Assembly: GCA_964580065.1 (NCBI GenBank)
Contig: CAZOJE010000001.1
Coordinates: 23,717 to 87,716 of the forward strand
DNA: 64,000 nucleotides
Source: an uncultured Candidatus Saccharibacteria bacterium
GTDB lineage: Bacteria > Patescibacteriota > UBA1384 > DTJR01
Reading direction: 5' to 3'
In this document: piece after piece, positions 3,657 through 37,826 of the stretch
Layout of the letters: every line of letters begins with the position of its first letter
Position numbering within the stretch: position 1 is the first letter of the stretch
The notes under the pieces: model-generated
Databases searched by the model: none
What the model saw: the letters and a program-made list of their open reading frames with translations, nothing else
What the model was told of the DNA's origin: nothing
Position numbers and translations under genes: made by a program

Positions 3657-3800
3657 AAAATAGTAGGTTAGTAGGTTAGTTGTTAGCGGGTAGGGAAGAA
3701 GAAAACAGAAAGAATAGTAAGTTAGTAGGCTAGTAGTTAGTGGGTAGTGGTTAGGGAAAAAGAGAACAGAAAGGATAGTAAGTTAGAAGGTTGGCGGGTA
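3657..3800. repeat. about 2.5 tandem copies of a roughly 62-bp unit (TAGTAGGTTAGT...GGGTAGGGAAGAAGAAAACAGAAAGAATAGTAA)
   Basis: Unit A 3657-3716, unit B 3717-3782, partial unit C to about 3810. Unit B contains the left arm of an inverted repeat that pairs with 4195-4230. Confidence 0.6.
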
Positions 3801-3846
3801 GTTGTTGGGGCAAGCTAGCCAAAAGACTGTTTTGCGTCTAGGTAAA

Positions 3847-4194
3847 ATGTTCAATTTTGAGAAATTAACCGTATACCAACGATCGCTTATACTAGCAACG
3901 AATTTGTCGAGAGTTGCTGGTGGCTTTCCATTGAAATATCGACGCATACAAGATCAGTTGATAGGTGCCGCCATTTCGGTAACTCTCAATATAGCCGAAG
4001 GATCTGGAAGGTATGGCAAAAGAGAAAAAATACAATTCTATCGAACGGCGCAAGCATCTGCTTTTGAGATAATTCCAATTTTGGAGATATGTGATAATCT
4101 TAATTTGCTCAAGAAAAATGAGTGGGCAGGTGAGGTTGAGGAAATTTGCAAAATGTTAAGTTCATTAATAAAAAAATTGAGTACATCCGAGTAG
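3847..4194 (+). CDS. four-helix-bundle protein (23S rRNA intervening-sequence protein family, PF05635-like)
   Basis: MFNFEKLTVYQRSLILATNL...PLKYRRIQDQLIGAAISVTLNIAEGSGRY...FYRTAQASAFEI matches the family hallmark (F.FE.L.VYQ...L..Q...AA.SI..NIAEG). Confidence 0.75.
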   Translation: MFNFEKLTVYQRSLILATNLSRVAGGFPLKYRRIQDQLIGAAISVTLNIAEGSGRYGKREKIQFYRTAQASAFEIIPILEICDNLNLLKKNEWAGEVEEICKMLSSLIKKLSTSE

Positions 4195-4230
4195 CCCTAA
4201 CCACTAACCTACTAACTACTAACAACTATT
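4195..4230. repeat. right arm of a roughly 34-bp inverted repeat (CCCTAACCACTAACCTACTAACTACTAACAACTA), reverse complement of 3725-3758
   Basis: The reverse complement of this arm matches TAGTAGTTAGT.GGTAGTGGTTAGGG in the upstream tandem repeat. The two arms bracket the four-helix-bundle ORF. Confidence 0.6.
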
Positions 4231-4234
4231 TCAT

Positions 4235-4311
4235 GCGCCCGTAGCTCAGCTGGATAGAGCGGCTGCCTTCTAAGCAGCAGGTCACAGGTTCGAATCCTGT
4301 CGGGCGTACCA
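4235..4311 (+). tRNA. tRNA-Arg (anticodon TCT)
   Basis: GCGCCCG-TA-GCTC-AGCTGGATA-GAGC...GCTGC-CTTCTAA-GCAGC...ACAGG-TTCGAAT-CCTGT-CGGGCGT-A-CCA. Confidence 0.85.
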
Positions 4312-4399
4312 GAATTTTCAATTCACCCGTAAGGGTGTGTTGAAAATTGTTTGGGAGCTACAGGATTCGAATGCCGGACTGAATCGCCGATTAGGCGAT

Positions 4400-4447
4400 G
4401 AGGGAGGCGGGGGTTTCGAGGGTGGAACTCGAAACTGCGGCGCACTC
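4400..4447. repeat. 47-nt motif GAGGGAGGCGGGGGTTTCGAGGGTGGAACTCGAAACTGCGGCGCACTC, identical to 35829-35877; internal hairpin GTTTCGAG-GGTGGAA-CTCGAAAC
   Basis: Exact 47-nt identity between the two loci. Both copies lie 90-100 bp downstream of a tRNA or tRNA fragment and share an upstream TGCCGGAC(T/C)GA block. Confidence 0.7.
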
Positions 4448-4525
4448 CTTAAAATGACTCCAAACGAGGAGTGGAAAGCAATGAAGTGCTTGAAGTGTCT
4501 GTCGACGAGTTGTTAGAATAAATTT

Positions 4526-5204: not shown

Positions 5205-5260
5205 GAAGCAGCTTAGTAAGCTATCCATTTATGATATTTTACTAAGCTGCTTCTGGCACT
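5205..5260. repeat. perfect 16-bp inverted repeat (AGAAGCAGCTTAGTAA ... TTACTAAGCTGCTTCT) with a 19-nt loop, at the edge of GC-rich islet 2
   Basis: Read directly from the sequence. A strong hairpin immediately upstream of the GC-rich segment. Confidence 0.7.
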
Positions 5261-5408
5261 TTAGTGTCGAAGCGGCGGCCGTCTCGCTAGAGCGAGCGGC
5301 AGTGTCTTCCCGAGATTTCGGGTTGCACAGGCACTACCTCAAAAGGAATCGGGGGTCCCAACCGATTCGCCACTTTAACAAAAGTGGAATCACCAGGAGG
5401 TGAGTGGG

Positions 5409-5834
5409 ATGTCTGGTTTCTACGAAAGCCGTAGAAGTGAATACCTCCAGGGCGCCAACCGGCGGCTGGAGGGGGAGTATGGCTTGTCGTTTTTTTTAGT
5501 CGAGGATCGCGTCCGGTGTCGCAAAGGCGCGACCTTCAACTTGAAGCTGAAGTTCAATGACGTGCCGCAGGTTGTCGAATTCGACATCCTGCTGGCACAG
5601 CCGCGGAAGCGGCTCCGCCGAGCGGTTGCCGCCGTCGAGCAGCACGGCCTTTTGGGCGTGCTGCTCGACCCAGAGACTTATCTCTGGGAGTCGATCCGCG
5701 ACGGAATTGTTTTTGGCCTGGAGCCGGCTCAATGGCTTCTTGAGCCGGTGCTTTCACGCGTCGCGCCCGAAGTTTGGGCGCAGGCGGTAGAGGGGGTCCG
5801 AGCTGACGCAAAAGAGCTCGGACGGGCGTGCTGA
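5409..5834 (+). CDS. GC-rich hypothetical protein (strong GC3 bias; foreign-looking)
   Basis: AGGAGGTG Shine-Dalgarno 6 nt before the ATG. Codon third positions are overwhelmingly G/C, unlike neighbouring genes. Followed by a terminator. No family recognised. Confidence 0.45.
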   Translation: MSGFYESRRSEYLQGANRRLEGEYGLSFFLVEDRVRCRKGATFNLKLKFNDVPQVVEFDILLAQPRKRLRRAVAAVEQHGLLGVLLDPETYLWESIRDGIVFGLEPAQWLLEPVLSRVAPEVWAQAVEGVRADAKELGRAC

Positions 5835-10524: not shown

Positions 10525-11928
10525 TTAATTGATTACCGACAGTTCCTTATTTCTCAAGCTCATTTTGATCTTAAGGCAGCTCAGGAGTTCTCGTTTTTCC
10601 TCTCTTGCTCCCTCGCGAAGCACAAACTTTGAGTAGTCTCTAAGATCTACTTTGTTATCTAAATCCTTGCTGATTTTTTGTTTTAGGATTTTCGACATAA
10701 ATCTCTCGTATCTATTTATCTCCGACTGTAAATGCTTTTGAGTATTAAGCGTATCGACATTGATATCATCAATAATTTTACAAATTTGTTCTGTAATCTC
10801 TTCTTCTCTTACATACGGCTGTTTACAATTTCGGTCTTTGCCACCAGTGCAGTGATAGTAGACATATCTTCTGATTACGCCATTATCTTGCCTTTTGAAC
10901 TTTTCTTCAGCTGTAACACCTGATCCGCAAACTCCGCAGAAAATGAGCTTGGTAAAGTCAAACTCTTTAGTTCCTGGCTTGGCTCTTGGAGCTACCACTA
11001 ATCTTTCCTGAACTTTATCAAATAGCTCTTTTGTAATGATTGATTCATGTCCGGCTTGATACCAAATTCCAGCACCTCTCGGGTATTCAAATGAACCGTA
11101 GTAGTAATGATTATTCAAAATTGCATAAATTGAACTTAATACCACTGGTTTTCCTTGCCTGGTTCTAAAATTGATTGAATTAAGCCAGTTTAATATTGTC
11201 CGGCCACTTTCACCATTTAAGGATCGCTCAAAAATCTCATGAATTACTGGTGCACGTTCAGGATCTAAGAATATTTTTTTGTATCCCTTTTTACCGCCAA
11301 TTTCATTCACATATCCTAGCGGTGGAGCACAGGGTCTGAATCCCATTTCACATTTGGCCTTAAGGCCTCGTTTTACATTAATAACCTTGTTGTCATTTTC
11401 GAGCTTCGCTTGGCTTCCTAAAATCATCAATAAGAACTTGTCATTCGGTGAATTAGTGAATATTTGATTGTAAGTTCTTATCTCAACAAGATAATTTTGG
11501 TCCATCAGATCTACCAAGGTTCCCAAATCACCAGCGTTTCTGCTTAATCTATCTGGTGCCCAGGTCAGAATACCTTGAATCTTGTCAGCCCGAATATCTT
11601 TGATTATAGACATGAATACTGGCCGTTCGGCCGAGTTTTTAGCTGAATGACTTTCTTTTCTGATATCAGCAACCTCCAAGCCATCCCGATCGGCGACCGC
11701 TAACATCTCTTTGAGCTGAGAATCGATGGAAAGAGCCTGTAATTCGTCTCTTTCGGTTGATTTACGAGCATAAAGGCAGAACTTGATCTTCTTATTTCCT
11801 GGCAGTATTGCTTCCATGGTAGGAGGGAAGGTACCGCAAGGGCTGGGCATGTCAAGCTCATTAAATGACTTTACAACAGGAGTAAATCTGCTAACATTAA
11901 GGTTGTTAATTGTACATTTTGAATACAT
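10525..11928 (-). CDS. large serine recombinase (resolvase/invertase N-terminal catalytic domain + recombinase domain + zinc ribbon)
   Basis: FCLYARKSTERDELQALSIDSQ matches the catalytic Y-x-R-x-S-T ... S-x-x-x-Q motif. LTWAPDRLSRN. The C-terminus has C..C...C..C (CGVCGSG...YYHCTGG..C). Confidence 0.85.
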   Translation of the reverse strand: MYSKCTINNLNVSRFTPVVKSFNELDMPSPCGTFPPTMEAILPGNKKIKFCLYARKSTERDELQALSIDSQLKEMLAVADRDGLEVADIRKESHSAKNSAERPVFMSIIKDIRADKIQGILTWAPDRLSRNAGDLGTLVDLMDQNYLVEIRTYNQIFTNSPNDKFLLMILGSQAKLENDNKVINVKRGLKAKCEMGFRPCAPPLGYVNEIGGKKGYKKIFLDPERAPVIHEIFERSLNGESGRTILNWLNSINFRTRQGKPVVLSSIYAILNNHYYYGSFEYPRGAGIWYQAGHESIITKELFDKVQERLVVAPRAKPGTKEFDFTKLIFCGVCGSGVTAEEKFKRQDNGVIRRYVYYHCTGGKDRNCKQPYVREEEITEQICKIIDDINVDTLNTQKHLQSEINRYERFMSKILKQKISKDLDNKVDLRDYSKFVLREGAREEKRELLSCLKIKMSLRNKELSVIN

Positions 11929-12100
11929 TGCCTAAACCTTAGAAATTTTCTAAGGCATGGCATAAAATCCTTCGCAGATAATGAGCTCGTCGTCAGAGCA
12001 TCTGCGAAGGTTGTGATCCGAAAGGATTGCAGGTAGCCGTAAAAAGCTATCGCTGGCGGCGGGCTTTTTGTATCCGCTTCCGGTTAATCGAGGCAAGAAA

Positions 12101-30576: not shown

Positions 30577-30824
30577 AATTTTCCTTTCGTGCAATACTAA
30601 TTTATAACATATGTCATAAATTATCAATAGTAAGCAGATTAGTAGGATAAGTTCTAATGCGATTTGTGGACGGAACACAAACCTAAACCTTTTTTAAAAT
30701 ATTGATCGCCGTTGCAAAAAACGACGAAAGAATTATTTCTTTACCGAGCCGTGGTATGCTTCAGACTAAAAATTAGCGTTTTGGGATTAGTTTCTGTGAT
30801 GGTAAAATAAAGATAAGGAGGATT

Positions 30825-35728: not shown

Positions 35729-35781
35729 GGGCCAGTAGCTCACGGGTTGTGTCGGTTGCCTCTTAAGCAACTTGTCGAGGG
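35729..35781 (+). pseudogene. 5' fragment of tRNA-Lys(CTT) with a mutated D-arm (pseudo-tRNA, 53 nt)
   Basis: GGGCCAGTAGCTCAcGGGTtGtGtcGGTTGCCTCTTAAGCAACTTGTCGAGGG compared with the intact gene at 35952: identical except for the D-loop. Ends where the T-loop would begin. Confidence 0.6.
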
Positions 35782-35828
35782 CTTGAGTGGGTGGAACGCT
35801 CAAGTGCCGGACCGAGTGAGCTAGCGAA

Positions 35829-35877
35829 CGAGGGAGGCGGGGGTTTCGAGGGTGGAACTCGAAACTGCGGCGCACTC
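35829..35877. repeat. second copy of the 47-nt hairpin motif (identical to 4400-4447)
   Basis: Exact identity. Preceded by a related hairpin CTTGAGTG-GGTGGAAC-GCTCAAG with the same loop sequence. Confidence 0.7.
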
Positions 35878-35951
35878 GTTGACAAAAAAATATCGCGCCG
35901 ACTTGTGACCGATCCCCAAGGGGATCGAACATTATAAATATATGTTAGTTT

Positions 35952-36026
35952 GGGCCAGTAGCTCAGTGGTAGAGCGGTTGCCTCTTAAGCAACTTGTCGA
36001 GGGTTCGATCCCCTCCTGGCCCTCCA
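35952..36026 (+). tRNA. tRNA-Lys (anticodon CTT)
   Basis: GGGCCAG-TA-GCTC-AGTGGTA-GAGC-G-GTTGC-CTCTTAA-GCAAC-TTGTC-GAGGG-TTCGATC-CCCTC-CTGGCCC-T-CCA. Confidence 0.85.
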
Positions 36027-36062
36027 AGCAAGTACCCCACGCAAGTGGGGTTTTTGCTTGGA
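36025..36062 (+). terminator. Rho-independent terminator after tRNA-Lys (CCCCACGCAAGTGGGG + TTTTT, with outer CCAAGCAA/TTGCTTGG)
   Basis: Hairpin followed by a T-run. Confidence 0.6.
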
Positions 36063-36153
36063 GTGATTTTGGCGCGGGGATCGAAGGCCGCAGGGCTGAC
36101 TGAGTCCGAGGCCCGCCCCGAAGAAATTTCAGCAGAAATTTACTGAGGGGGAG

Positions 36154-36170
36154 CCCCTCCTGGCCCTCCA
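36154..36170 (+). repeat. 17-19 nt duplicate of the tRNA-Lys 3' end (CCCCTCCTGGCCCTCCAA); att-like remnant
   Basis: Identical to the tRNA 3' terminus, 130 bp downstream of the intact gene. Confidence 0.55.
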
Positions 36171-36427
36171 AACCTATTTTGCGCAAGCAAGGAGGTTTGT
36201 CCTCCGTCTTGTCTATCATAGCTTCATGCGAAGATGGAAGCTCTAAAGAGCGTAGGACGGACTACCCATAACCCATAACTTTACGTGAAGAAGAACATTC
36301 TAAACCTAGAGTTTGCCGCCTAATACAGATAGCTTTTTATTCGAGTAATTGGAGACAATGACCAAAATTTTTGAAAGTAAAAGGGACCTACTTAGTAGGT
36401 CCCTGTGTACAGCTTCTCGTGCTGCAA

Positions 36428-36778
36428 CTAGTCCTCGAACTCGAGGGCAACGCGCCTGATGCGGCGGAACCGGACGAACCGGAACCCTTGGCCGCGCGCG
36501 CCCCAGAAATCGACCTTGGCCGGATCGTTTTCTTCGACCGATTCCGACCAAAGCGGCTTGACACCCTCATGACAGAGCACCGCGATGACCGAGAGGGGGG
36601 CCACGACCACCAGATCGTCGAACCCGCCCTGTTCGTATCGGGTAGCAATCTGCCTAGCGTCATCGAACGGCTTCGAATCCTGTTCGATGATTGTATCGGC
36701 GCCGTACATCTTTTGCAGCGCCTTGATCTGTCGAGGGTGTGGCTTGTGTCGCGACATCCACAAGATCTTTTTCGACAT
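36428..36778 (-). CDS. GC-rich hypothetical protein (strong GC3 bias; foreign-looking)
   Basis: MSKKILWMSRHKPHPRQIKALQKMYGADTIIEQ...GGFDDLVVVAPLSVIAVL.... Third-position G/C dominates the codons. Local GC is above 60% against about 38% background. Confidence 0.4.
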   Translation of the reverse strand: MSKKILWMSRHKPHPRQIKALQKMYGADTIIEQDSKPFDDARQIATRYEQGGFDDLVVVAPLSVIAVLCHEGVKPLWSESVEENDPAKVDFWGARGQGFRFVRFRRIRRVALEFED

Positions 36779-37226: not shown

Positions 37227-37634
37227 ATGAAAAAAATTATTGTTTTTGGATCGTTCGACCCTCTCCATCAAGGTCATTTGAATTTTTTTAATCAGGCAAA
37301 AAAACTTGGTGATTATTTAATTGTTGTGGTGGCGCGAGATGAAAACATTAAAAAAAATAAGAATAGGGAAGTGAGATTTGGCGAAGATGAACGAATGAAA
37401 GCTGTTGAAGCAACACAAATTGCCAACGAAGTGATGTTGGGAGACGAGAGCGATAGCTACACAATCCTTGAAAAAATTAATCCTGACGTTATTGCTGTCG
37501 GTTATGATCAAAAAATCCCCGAGGTCTTGAAAAATAAGGTTAAAAAGTATAAAATTGTCACGTTGAAGCCGTTTAAGCCGGAAATTTTTAAATCGAGTAA
37601 GATGATAAATTCGGATAACGGCCCCATCGTCTAG
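37227..37634 (+). CDS. cytidylyltransferase-family nucleotidyltransferase (HxGH motif; RibL/TagD-like). Its 3' end overlaps tRNA-Glu by about 15 nt.
   Basis: IIVFGSFDPLHQGHLNFF...YLIVVVARDE. Confidence 0.75.
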   Translation: MKKIIVFGSFDPLHQGHLNFFNQAKKLGDYLIVVVARDENIKKNKNREVRFGEDERMKAVEATQIANEVMLGDESDSYTILEKINPDVIAVGYDQKIPEVLKNKVKKYKIVTLKPFKPEIFKSSKMINSDNGPIV

Positions 37635-37694
37635 TGGTCAGGACACCAGGTTTTCATCCTGGCAACCGGGGTTCGACTCCCCGTGGGGTCACCA
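37620..37694 (+). tRNA. tRNA-Glu (anticodon TTC)
   Basis: GGCCCCA-TC-GTCT-AGTGGTCAGGAC-ACCAGG-TTTTCAT-CCTGG-CAAC-CGGGG-TTCGACT-CCCCG-TGGGGTC-A-CCA. Confidence 0.85.
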
Positions 37695-37739
37695 ATTGAA
37701 TTCGTGAGAGGAATAGGTTTTTGTTCCACCCAAAAACCG

Positions 37740-37798
37740 CATCCTGGCAACCGGGGGTTTCGAGAGTGGAGCTCGAAACTATCCCCGTGGGGTCACCA
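37740..37798 (+). repeat. duplicate of the tRNA-Glu 3' half in which the T-loop is replaced by a GTTTCGAG-AGTGGAG-CTCGAAAC hairpin (a relative of the 47-nt motif)
   Basis: CATCCTGGCAACCGGGGG[TTTCGAGAGTGGAGCTCGAAACTA]TCCCCGTGGGGTCACCA compared with the tRNA CATCCTGGCAACCGGGG-TTCGACT-CCCCGTGGGGTCACCA. Confidence 0.65.
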
Positions 37799-37826
37799 GT
37801 TCGCCGCCTTTTTTGGCGGTTTTTTG

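Follow-up and report, generated by a model that had tools for sequence, protein, structure and literature searches.

The window analysed here is a 64,000-nucleotide (nt) stretch of contig CAZOJE010000001.1 from an uncultured Candidatus Saccharibacteria bacterium (assembly GCA_964580065.1, positions 23,717 to 87,716 of the forward strand). It contains a 48-nt sequence, GAGGGAGGCGGGGGTTTCGAGGGTGGAACTCGAAACTGCGGCGCACTC, exactly twice, at 4400–4447 and 35830–35877, with 0 matches in 100 shuffles. Judged from its sequence, this repeat appears to be the central module of a kind of tRNA-linked repeat specific to the Candidate Phyla Radiation (CPR), and the cassettes that carry it appear to be a variant of tRNA-linked repeats with a defined modular fold in uncultured CPR/Patescibacteria. 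The cassette family has a recurrent anatomy, covarying hairpins, linkage to tRNA genes, conservation at orthologous tRNAs and presence/absence differences between relatives. We hypothesize, at a probability of roughly 0.45, that the cassette is a structured read-through RNA with protein-binding loops, spreading by recombination at tRNA ends.

The original prediction for this stretch, made from the sequence alone, had described the duplication as 47 nt long with a second copy starting at 35829. The identity is real, but the length is 48 nt and the second start is 35830. The repeat itself was also taken there as the unit, whereas it belongs, as one of several modules, to a larger cassette that an inverted and a direct tRNA 3′-end copy delimit. 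As explanations, a small RNA, a recombinase recognition structure and a tRNA-targeting miniature element had been offered, which remains the right short list.

Cassette anatomy

The cassette is a non-coding segment of 100–230 nt located just after a tRNA gene, with 53–61% GC in a genome of ~40% GC. In the 5′ part of the layout, the tRNA precedes a terminator-like hairpin with ATTTGG behind it, and then come a left arm, AA(A/G)GCCGGAG, the short hairpin hp1 (3–6 bp, loop GACG, GAAG, GAUUA or GUAA) and CGAGGCGGG. The 3′ part continues with a GGUGGAA hairpin (hp2), a 7-bp hairpin with an AGCA loop (hp3), NUGUGAC and an exact copy of the tRNA 3′ end from C56 of the T-loop to CCA. One subtype has its AGCA hairpin flanked by GAAG/ACUGA and an outer stem CGCCC/GGGCG; the subtype of the 48-mer carries CGGCGC...GCGCCG in place of the AGCA hairpin. 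The module order and the junction strings GCCGGAG, CGAGGCGGG, GUGACC and GAAG/ACUGA recur across tRNAs and genomes. The GAAG/ACUGA internal loop is best read as tandem G–A pairs; a hammerhead, another small ribozyme or a K-turn (kink-turn) was considered for it and rejected, the hammerhead CUGANGA core being absent by inspection.

Downstream of 10 tRNAs, at distances of 78–232 nt, the tRNA 3′ end is repeated exactly and in direct orientation, with the boundary constant at C56. These repeats measure 17 nt at tRNA-Lys (36154–36170) and 16 nt at tRNA-Glu (37783–37798) of the window and up to 21 nt at eight other loci; in the related locus L030 the direct repeat also takes in a 44-nt terminator. 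The left arm is the reverse complement of the last ~21–23 nt of its own tRNA, often extending from TGG, the complement of CCA, to ATTCGAA. Full 23-nt TGG...TTCGAA alignments were obtained in four cassettes, and the left arm of L027, GGGCAGGGATTCG, is a 13-nt exact complement of the tRNA 3′ end. The arm is no copy of the T-stem 5′ strand, as seen in L029 (GCAGGACTCG vs GTGGG in the tRNA T-stem).

Since inverted and direct copies of the tRNA end frame the cassette, a single strand can close into a long stem, designated P1. Modules were tested separately, and P1 was judged by comparing cognate with non-cognate tRNA 3′ ends: scored against 17 tRNA 3′ ends, the left arm fitted its own tRNA best in 11 of 17 cassettes and placed it among the first four in 16. 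The bounded segments (80–230 nt) contain no open reading frames (ORFs), and no recombinase is encoded in or beside any cassette examined; in other loci, ten ORFs adjacent to cassettes belong to ordinary genes (HD, NUDIX, phosphoesterase, aminotransferase and the like).

Covariation of the hairpins

The hp2 hairpin has a stem of 8–9 bp and the loop GGUGGAA. At least 14 different stems occur, all of them fully compensated. The alignment of 23 distinct members is gapless, with an invariant closing G–C pair and invariant loop bases GUGGA. Over 8 pairs, 98.9% of stem cells are paired, a percentage partly built in by collecting hairpins on the requirement of a complementary stem, and changes on both sides are found in 7 of the 8 pairs. 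The covariation score reaches 0.88 vs 0.18 in shuffles and ≤0.18 with the partners slid, and 0 of 500 shuffles attain the observed value. The hairpin that the original prediction proposed to examine by covariation is thus strongly supported. A similar pattern is found in hp3: its 12 distinct stems reach 92.9% pairing, and both sides have changed in 6 of 7 pairs.

Within the window, four of five GGTGGAAC occurrences carry 8–9 bp stems; further copies were sought as the loop with any complementary stem. A covariance model built from the hp2 family yields five strong matches in the 64 kb (35–42 bits), all at tRNA loci and with three stems among them, and one weak match. Three of these family members had not been noticed before, at 35781–35805 (+), 37716–37738 (−) and, in degenerate form, 30659–30685, and the same is true of a second cassette, lacking the GGTGGAA hairpin, after the real tRNA-Lys (36070–36170).

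In two related loci, L034 (1730–1775) and L038 (9620–9665), a GGTGGAA hairpin apparently sits within the loop of a second family member (CTTGAGCGGGTGG|GTTTCGAGGGTGGAACTCGAAAC), and in L034 the D-loop position of a pseudo-tRNA-Arg is taken by a further one. These cases hint at hairpin loops as favoured sites of insertion.

Linkage to tRNA genes and occurrence

A scan of one genome per GTDB species detected the hairpin pattern in three contigs of two CPR assemblies, one of them labelled Berkelbacteria. A metagenome scan found the hairpin in 35 contigs, whose flanks hold many more members with other stems. Linkage was assessed in 33 non-redundant loci (243 kb, 53 tRNAs, 49 hairpins). There, a tRNA on the same strand precedes 18 of 49 hairpins at a distance of ≤300 nt (3.3% expected; >10-fold enrichment downstream of tRNAs) and 30 of 49 lie ≤300 nt from a tRNA on either side, the tRNAs with linked hairpins being Arg, Lys, Glu, Gln, Trp, Thr, Tyr, Asp, Met, Val and Leu. 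The remaining hairpins are located in ordinary intergenic regions, in both orientations, after genes and between divergent genes. The check originally proposed, whether copies always lie 3′ of tRNA genes, thus gives a strong linkage (18/49 vs ~3%) but no rule, as the same hairpin also occurs away from tRNAs.

The cassette family is previously undescribed. At the gathering threshold, Rfam 15 recognizes only tRNAs and a LOOT RNA in the whole window, and a search of both motif regions with E values up to 10 returned chance-level matches only, with nothing credible overlapping the motif. BLAST of a complete cassette against phage and plasmid collections gave no match, and the searchable literature holds nothing relevant to the cassettes apart from a paper on E. 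coli tRNA-linked repeats (PMC8144298). In 2.9 million viral contigs the degenerate hp2 pattern matched 7 times, with 0 complementary stems, and thereby served as a negative control; the hp3 motif matched 0 times. A viral origin of the hairpin was rejected on these grounds.

The repeats appear to break short-read assemblies: two Logan contigs end at or near them, and in line with this the short-read contigs L011 (Logan, ending at 1578) and L051, from the same population, stop inside or beside a hairpin or cassette. A separate repeat family, TTCGACTCGCTTCGCTCGCTCATGG, is found directly after the CCA of several tRNAs (L002, L022, L029; tRNA-Trp or tRNA-Arg) and also beside solitary hairpins (L003, 860–890).

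Persistence and turnover in related genomes

ARAGORN detects six tRNA genes in the window, namely Gly (3582), Arg-TCT (4235), His (9142), Arg-TCG (9725), Lys (35952) and Glu (37620). The related locus L024 has them in the same order, all within 2.7 kb, and shares with the window a cytidylyltransferase gene before tRNA-Glu (60% identity). Cassettes follow the same three tRNAs (Arg-TCT, Lys and Glu) in both. In the Lys cassette the hp3 stem is fully replaced, AAATTTC in the window vs CCCCGC in L024, while GAAG, ACUGA and CGAGGCCCGCCC are kept. Left arms track the T-loop differences of their tRNAs (Lys, GGGGATCG in the window vs GGATTCG in L024; Arg-TCT, ATTCG vs GCTCG).

The window also contains a 3′-half copy of tRNA-Glu with a hairpin in place of its T-loop. 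The counterpart in L024 shows a compensated T-stem change, C–G to T–A, and its T-loop hairpin has another stem and the opposite orientation. What could be taken for a one-off insertion is thus an arrangement conserved in L024, where the neighbouring gene is only 60% identical. Upstream pseudo-tRNAs with D- and T-loop insertions are likewise present in L024, L034 and L038.

Other comparisons point to turnover. The genes for tRNA-Arg(TCT) and tRNA-His are separated by 10 nt without a cassette in L034, by a 187-nt cassette in L024 and by 4.8 kb in the window. Identical tRNA-Thr, -Tyr and -Trp 3′ ends are followed by different cassette variants, or by none, in L002, L022 and L028, and a near-identical cassette stands after Arg-TCG in L029 and after Arg-TCT in the window. 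The cassette family accordingly shows both long persistence and turnover.

On the minus strand of L024 (10290–10350 and 10190–10215), tRNA-Glu is preceded by a 5′ tRNA-Glu fragment, with flanks forming an inverted repeat of ~13 bp by which the acceptor stem is lengthened (AAGACGTTCAATTGGT / ACCAATTAAACGTCTT). The arrangement resembles the insertion of a new copy of tRNA-Glu within an older gene.

A proposed read-through structured RNA

Several features argue that the cassette acts as a folded single strand: invariant loops on compensated stems, arms complementary to the changing tRNA ends, GC-richness and the terminator–cassette–terminator layout. Segments of this general kind, the tRNA-linked repeats (TLRs) of Escherichia coli, were reportedly described by Egan and Landy in 1978 and by Rudd in 1999. 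As the closest described kind, they are a reason to favour a read-through RNA. E. coli TLRs are ~150 nt long, follow tRNA or 5S genes and close with the last 18–19 nt of the gene, and three of them, the rrn examples RrA/RrB/RrF, are read-through small RNAs binding Hfq and CsrA, the latter recognizing GGA in hairpin loops (PMC8144298). Like them, the cassettes are non-coding, follow the tRNA directly and repeat the gene end at their 3′ end; at Lys and Glu of the window, terminator-like hairpins predicted before (T1) and after (T2) the cassette would place it between two terminators as well. The invariant hp2 loop, too, contains GGA, the element recognized by CsrA.

The likeness does not extend to sequence, as no sequence or Rfam (RtT) similarity was detected at the gathering threshold or at E values up to 10. 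Unlike E. coli TLRs, the CPR cassettes add an inverted tRNA-end copy forming a closing stem, a fixed set of hairpins with conserved loops and pseudo-tRNA forms upstream; copies of their hairpin module are scattered at sites away from tRNAs too, and the cassettes are associated with many tRNA identities in several CPR lineages.

We propose that the RNA would be made by read-through of a weak first terminator of the tRNA transcription unit. The single strand would close into P1, carrying two or three hairpins with drifting stems and presenting the fixed loops GACG-type, G-GGUGGAA-C and C-AGCA-G, while the tRNA-end copy and P1 would set the ends of the RNA. A protein or RNA acting in trans may make contact at the invariant loops. 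The tRNA-end repeats could in turn supply the homology through which cassettes spread by copying or swapping between tRNA loci, or become truncated or lost there, and such homology-driven copying would explain both the exact 48-nt identity and the patchy distribution.

Several observations weigh against this proposal. Per-cassette P1 runs are not individually significant against shuffles, in a test that is noisy, and the whole-cassette consensus fold is weak (RNAalifold, 10 sequences; MAFFT mishandles optional modules). The pairing of P1 right through CCA is not tRNA-like. A terminator-like hairpin precedes most cassettes, and solitary hairpins are found between divergent genes as well as after genes. 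The selection of hairpins for complementary stems, mentioned above, counts here as well. Finally, related genomes differ at one and the same tRNA in which modules are present, in their order and even in their orientation, which looks more like mobile or recombining DNA than like a vertically conserved RNA gene.

CPR/Patescibacteria represent a large share of bacterial diversity, and their non-coding RNAs and small mobile elements are almost unknown. If the cassettes are RNAs, they would extend the poorly understood TLRs of E. coli to a distant phylum, with a defined fold and candidate protein-binding loops. If they are folded attachment sites, as considered below, they would represent a new way of targeting tRNA genes and help to explain the mosaic tRNA loci of these tiny genomes. 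In either case, pseudo-tRNA forms and tRNA-end copies can mislead tRNA annotation.

Alternative explanations

The main alternative, possible but somewhat doubtful, is a non-autonomous integrative DNA cassette, mobilized in trans, with a folded single-strand attachment site resembling attC or the attP of CTX-phi. A recombinase encoded elsewhere would exchange strands in the T-loop at 55/56, using the conserved loops as recognition points, and the resulting order would be tRNA, element-borne 3′ end and terminator, inverted arm, hairpins and displaced native 3′ end. The observed order is the exact prediction of a one-strand exchange with a folded hairpin; the constant repeat boundary at C56 and the inclusion of the 44-nt terminator in the L030 repeat fit it too. 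A repeat from the T-loop to CCA is reportedly the classical identity block of tRNA-targeting integrases (Williams 2002). As in attL/attR scars and miniature derivatives of tRNA-integrating elements, including cis-mobilizable ones, the tRNA 3′ end is directly repeated from the T-loop onward, with a replacement terminator after the tRNA, a presence that differs between relatives and DNA of foreign composition nearby. The bounded segment, unlike such elements, is only 80–230 nt long and has no integrase inside, and the cassettes hold an inverted core copy and covarying hairpins, for which ordinary double-stranded att arms have no need.

The turnover described above speaks for integration: different variants, or none, at the same tRNA in relatives, including the Arg(TCT)–His interval of L034, L024 and the window; near-identical cassettes shared by Arg(TCG) of L029 and Arg(TCT) of the window; the exact 48-nt identity within one genome; and truncated or nested copies (L025, L034/L038). 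Extra DNA of foreign composition beside cassettes points the same way. Persistence at the same three tRNAs despite only 60% identity of the neighbouring protein, however, is hard to reconcile with it, and upstream pseudo-tRNA forms are not explained by simple integration. No recombinase gene lies in or next to any cassette examined; the window has just one, for a large serine recombinase, at a distance of 26 kb from copy 2 and adjacent to a tRNA that lacks a cassette. Neither a full-length form bearing cargo in the interval from T1 to the left arm nor copies in the 2.9 million viral contigs or the phage and plasmid collections were found.

A bolder version, to which we give still less credence, would make the cassettes a new class of non-autonomous CPR mobile elements, in which the stem of a single-stranded DNA attachment site copies the tRNA gene's 3′ end. 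An integron- or CTX-phi-like mechanism would then be retargeted to tRNA T-loops, with the GGUGGAA and AGCA loops as handles for a recombinase encoded elsewhere, and cassette sites would seed adjacent insertion of foreign DNA. Similarity to integron attC and CTX-phi attP(+) is one of form only: inverted arms around a variable structured region would fold to mimic a partner site, and structure plus a few bases is conserved rather than the stem sequence. Unlike in those systems, the arms are tRNA-specific instead of a GTTRRRY or dif core, and there is no linked IntI- or Xer-type gene, array or ORF.

Cassettes without a function of their own are improbable in our view. They would be scars of integration or homing, left as partial tRNA copies and then colonized by a selfish palindrome similar to repetitive extragenic palindromes (REPs), which settles in T- and D-loops of dead tRNA copies and at other intergenic spots, so that a cassette is an accumulation of scars. 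Many kinds of tRNA fragments do occur nearby, such as 5′ fragments with GIY-YIG ORFs (L031, L024, L018) and the 5′ tRNA-Glu fragment of L024, and hairpins nested in another hairpin's loop (L034/L038) or located at pseudo-tRNA D-loop positions, solitary hairpins in ordinary intergenic regions in both orientations, the truncated copy 1 and decayed repeats are in line with such a history. Scars do not readily account for left arms tuned to each tRNA and covarying between orthologues, for the compensated T-stem of the L024 tRNA-Glu half copy, or for junction strings and a module order that recur across tRNAs and genomes. Selfish repeats also normally share stems within a genome, whereas here the loops are invariant and the stems differ with perfect compensation.

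The comparison with REPs and bacterial interspersed mosaic elements (BIMEs) leads to the same contrast. Both are short intergenic palindromes in mosaic combinations and in both orientations, sometimes paired (37716/37756 of the window; L042). REPs, however, conserve the stem, with a GTAG-type tetranucleotide at its 5′ end, and leave the loop free, the reverse of the cassette hairpins, and they reach a high copy number, unlike the 5–6 copies per 64 kb clustered at tRNAs in the window; they are also accompanied by a RAYT gene, of which none was found among the ORFs scanned here.

Very improbable is an hp2 loop that binds the tRNA 3′ end, UGGA in GGUGGAA pairing with NCCA as does UGGN of T-boxes, the cassette thereby sensing or sequestering uncharged tRNA. 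The tRNA linkage and the tRNA-end copies suit this idea, and the closing pair and loop, GGGUGGAAC, appear to resemble the T-box core, GGGUGGNAC; the loop is nevertheless invariant whatever the adjacent discriminator (A, G, U, C) and so lacks T-box-type UGGN–discriminator covariation, it is a hairpin loop instead of an antiterminator bulge, no regulated gene comes after it, and Rfam gives no T-box match at E values up to 10.

The remaining candidates were rejected. A tmRNA (transfer-messenger RNA) or permuted tmRNA, suggested by the resemblance of GGGAGCUACAGGAUUCGAA to a tmRNA 5′ end, is not detected by ARAGORN, and the Rfam permuted-tmRNA model scores 9 bits over the tRNA T-arm. The GTTTC...GAAAC ends recall a CRISPR repeat, yet there is no array, the copies being dispersed at 4.4, 35.8, 35.85, 37.7 and 37.76 kb. 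A miniature inverted-repeat transposable element (MITE) is excluded by the lack of element-specific terminal inverted repeats and of a short target-site duplication: the arms change with each tRNA, and the repeat is 16–21 nt of tRNA sequence.

Individual cassettes of the window

All features below are on the plus strand unless stated otherwise. The core hairpin GTTTCGAG-GGTGGAA-CTCGAAAC lies at 4413–4435 and 35843–35865, and a variant with two mismatches, both in the loop (GTTTCGAG-AGTGGAG-CTCGAAAC), at 37757–37779. As had been noted originally, copy 1 of the repeat is close to the end of tRNA-Arg(TCT), starting 88 nt after the gene, copy 2 starts ~50 nt past the 5′ part of a pseudo-tRNA-Lys, and both are preceded by a TGCCGGACYGA block (4372–4382 and 35805–35815, respectively).

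The host of copy 1, tRNA-Arg(TCT) (4235–4311; ARAGORN; Rfam tRNA, 72.3 bits), is followed by the terminator-like hairpin T1 (4312–4348), identified by sequence and fold, and then by TTGTTTGGG; a homologous hairpin is present in L029 and others, and the placement of T1 between tRNA and cassette is common to most related loci. The left arm TGGGAGCTACAGGATTCGAA (4352–4371) is an inverted, partly decayed 3′ end of tRNA-Arg(TCT), for which the own tRNA ranks first among 17; within it, ACAGGATTCG is the exact complement of CGAATCCTGT of the tRNA. Then come the junction TGCCGGACTGA with hp1 (ATCGCC-GATTA-GGCGAT; 4372–4399), of which L030 has the compensated variant CTTGCC-GTAA-GGCAAG, and the 48-nt repeat itself (4400–4447; 42.5 bits), composed of the junction GAGGGAGGCGGG, hp2 (4412–4436) and the third-hairpin strand CGGCGC. 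This cassette (4352–4450) diverges from the complete cassettes of L029 and L030 after CACTCCTT and is therefore 3′-truncated. The partner strand GCGCCG, GTGAC and the direct tRNA-end repeat are missing. The 4.7-kb stretch between copy 1 and tRNA-His contains a RibD_C gene, a GC-rich orphan ORF and TetR and ABC-2 genes.

The pseudo-tRNA-Lys (35729–35781), not called by ARAGORN and matched exactly by a 5′ probe at −223, combines an altered D-loop with an intact anticodon arm, the 5′ acceptor strand and the 5′ strand of the T-stem. At its T-loop position stands a complete module set (35781–35930), opened by a second family hairpin, GCTTGAGTG-GGTGGAA-CGCTCAAGT (35781–35805; 34.9 bits). Copy 2 of the repeat (35830–35877; hp2 at 35842–35866), identified by exact match and by the covariance model, lies ~75 nt upstream of the real tRNA-Lys. 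The remainder (35868–35930) consists of CGGCGC...GCGCCG (35868–35900), GTGACC (35905–35910) and the end CGATCCCC-AA-GGGGATCGAAC. Here CGATCCCC is a 3′ fragment of T-loop and T-stem, and the last 11 nt, GGGGATCGAAC, are exactly complementary to the 3′ side of the T-arm of the real tRNA-Lys, whose gene begins 21 nt further on. As a pseudo-tRNA form, copy 2 has no direct repeat of the tRNA end.

The real tRNA-Lys(CTT) (35952–36026; ARAGORN, Rfam) is followed by T1 (36034–36051), a complete cassette of the second subtype without hp2 (36070–36170), orthologous to the cassette after tRNA-Lys in L024, and T2 (36191–36205). This cassette comprises the left arm TGGCGCGGGGATCGAA, then GGCCGCAGGG and CGAGGCCCGCCCC-GAAG, hp3 (AAATTTC-AGCA-GAAATTT; 36120–36146), ACTGA-GGGG and the direct repeat CCCCTCCTGGCCCTCCA (36154–36170), equal to the tRNA-Lys 3′ end.

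The unit after tRNA-Glu(TTC) (37620–37694; ARAGORN) is of a different design (37716–37798): a hairpin, a 3′-half tRNA copy with a T-loop hairpin and a terminator. The first hairpin, GGTTTTTG-GGTGGAA-CAAAAACC (37716–37738; 38.9 bits), is inverted, belonging to the minus strand, and its loop reads TTCCACC on the tRNA-sense strand. The half copy (37740–37798) corresponds to tRNA-Glu positions ~38–76 with the T-loop replaced by GGTTTCGAG-AGTGGAG-CTCGAAACT (37756–37780), as originally described, and ends in CCCCGTGGGGTCACCA (37783–37798), the exact 16-nt tRNA-Glu 3′ end; a terminator follows at 37803–37820. On the tRNA-sense strand, the two loops of this unit (37724–37730 and 37765–37771) read UUCCACC and AGUGGAG, making a 5-bp kissing contact UCCAC/GUGGA conceivable. 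The former also resembles a T-loop (UUC.A..).

The degenerate sixth hairpin, GATTTGTG-GACGGAA-CACAAACC (30659–30685; 17.8 bits, E 0.04), is located away from tRNAs.

Putative neighbouring insertions

Approximately 26 kb (9802–35728) separate tRNA-Arg(TCG) from the pseudo-tRNA-Lys, whereas the two tRNAs are 67 nt apart in L024, and the stretch looks like an integrated island. It encodes the large serine recombinase (10525–11928, minus strand), immediately abutting a LOOT RNA (11929–12051, plus strand; 93.6 bits), together with ParB-methylase, TerB_N, PD-(D/E)XK/RNase H-like and WYL-receiver proteins and two proteins of >1300 aa. Copy 2 was considered as the attachment junction of this island, and no matching tRNA-Lys fragment was seen at the other end; no tyrosine recombinase was found among the ORFs scanned, and no link of the serine recombinase to the cassettes emerged.

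Between tRNA-Gly and tRNA-Arg (3660–4230) there is an ORF of the 23S-rRNA intervening sequence (IVS) protein family (3802–4194; PF05635), flanked by inverted repeats of 20–29 nt (3667–3695 / 4195–4223) and preceded by a 61-nt tandem duplication (3675–3796). This region is an IVS-like, stem-bounded insert in a tRNA spacer. A small GIY-YIG ORF (2479–2709) is bracketed by a 38-nt repeat (2415–2452 / 2829–2866). Similar ORFs in L018, L024 and L031 either separate a tRNA 5′ fragment from the intact gene (tRNA-Ser, L031) or come directly behind tRNAs, suggesting that homing-endonuclease genes also target tRNA loci in these genomes.

Three islands of 55–69% GC stand out from the ~40% GC genome (2880–3250, 5240–5900 and 36380–36800), with one small ORF each. 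ORF 5400–5834 has no relative but itself among 5.8 billion proteins, and the GC-rich leader upstream of it (5240–5400) is probably structured. ORF 36428–36778 (minus strand) belongs to a 116-aa family conserved in Patescibacteria at 65–77% identity, whose accessory surroundings vary (HicAB, methylases) and which once stands directly after a tRNA-Ser.

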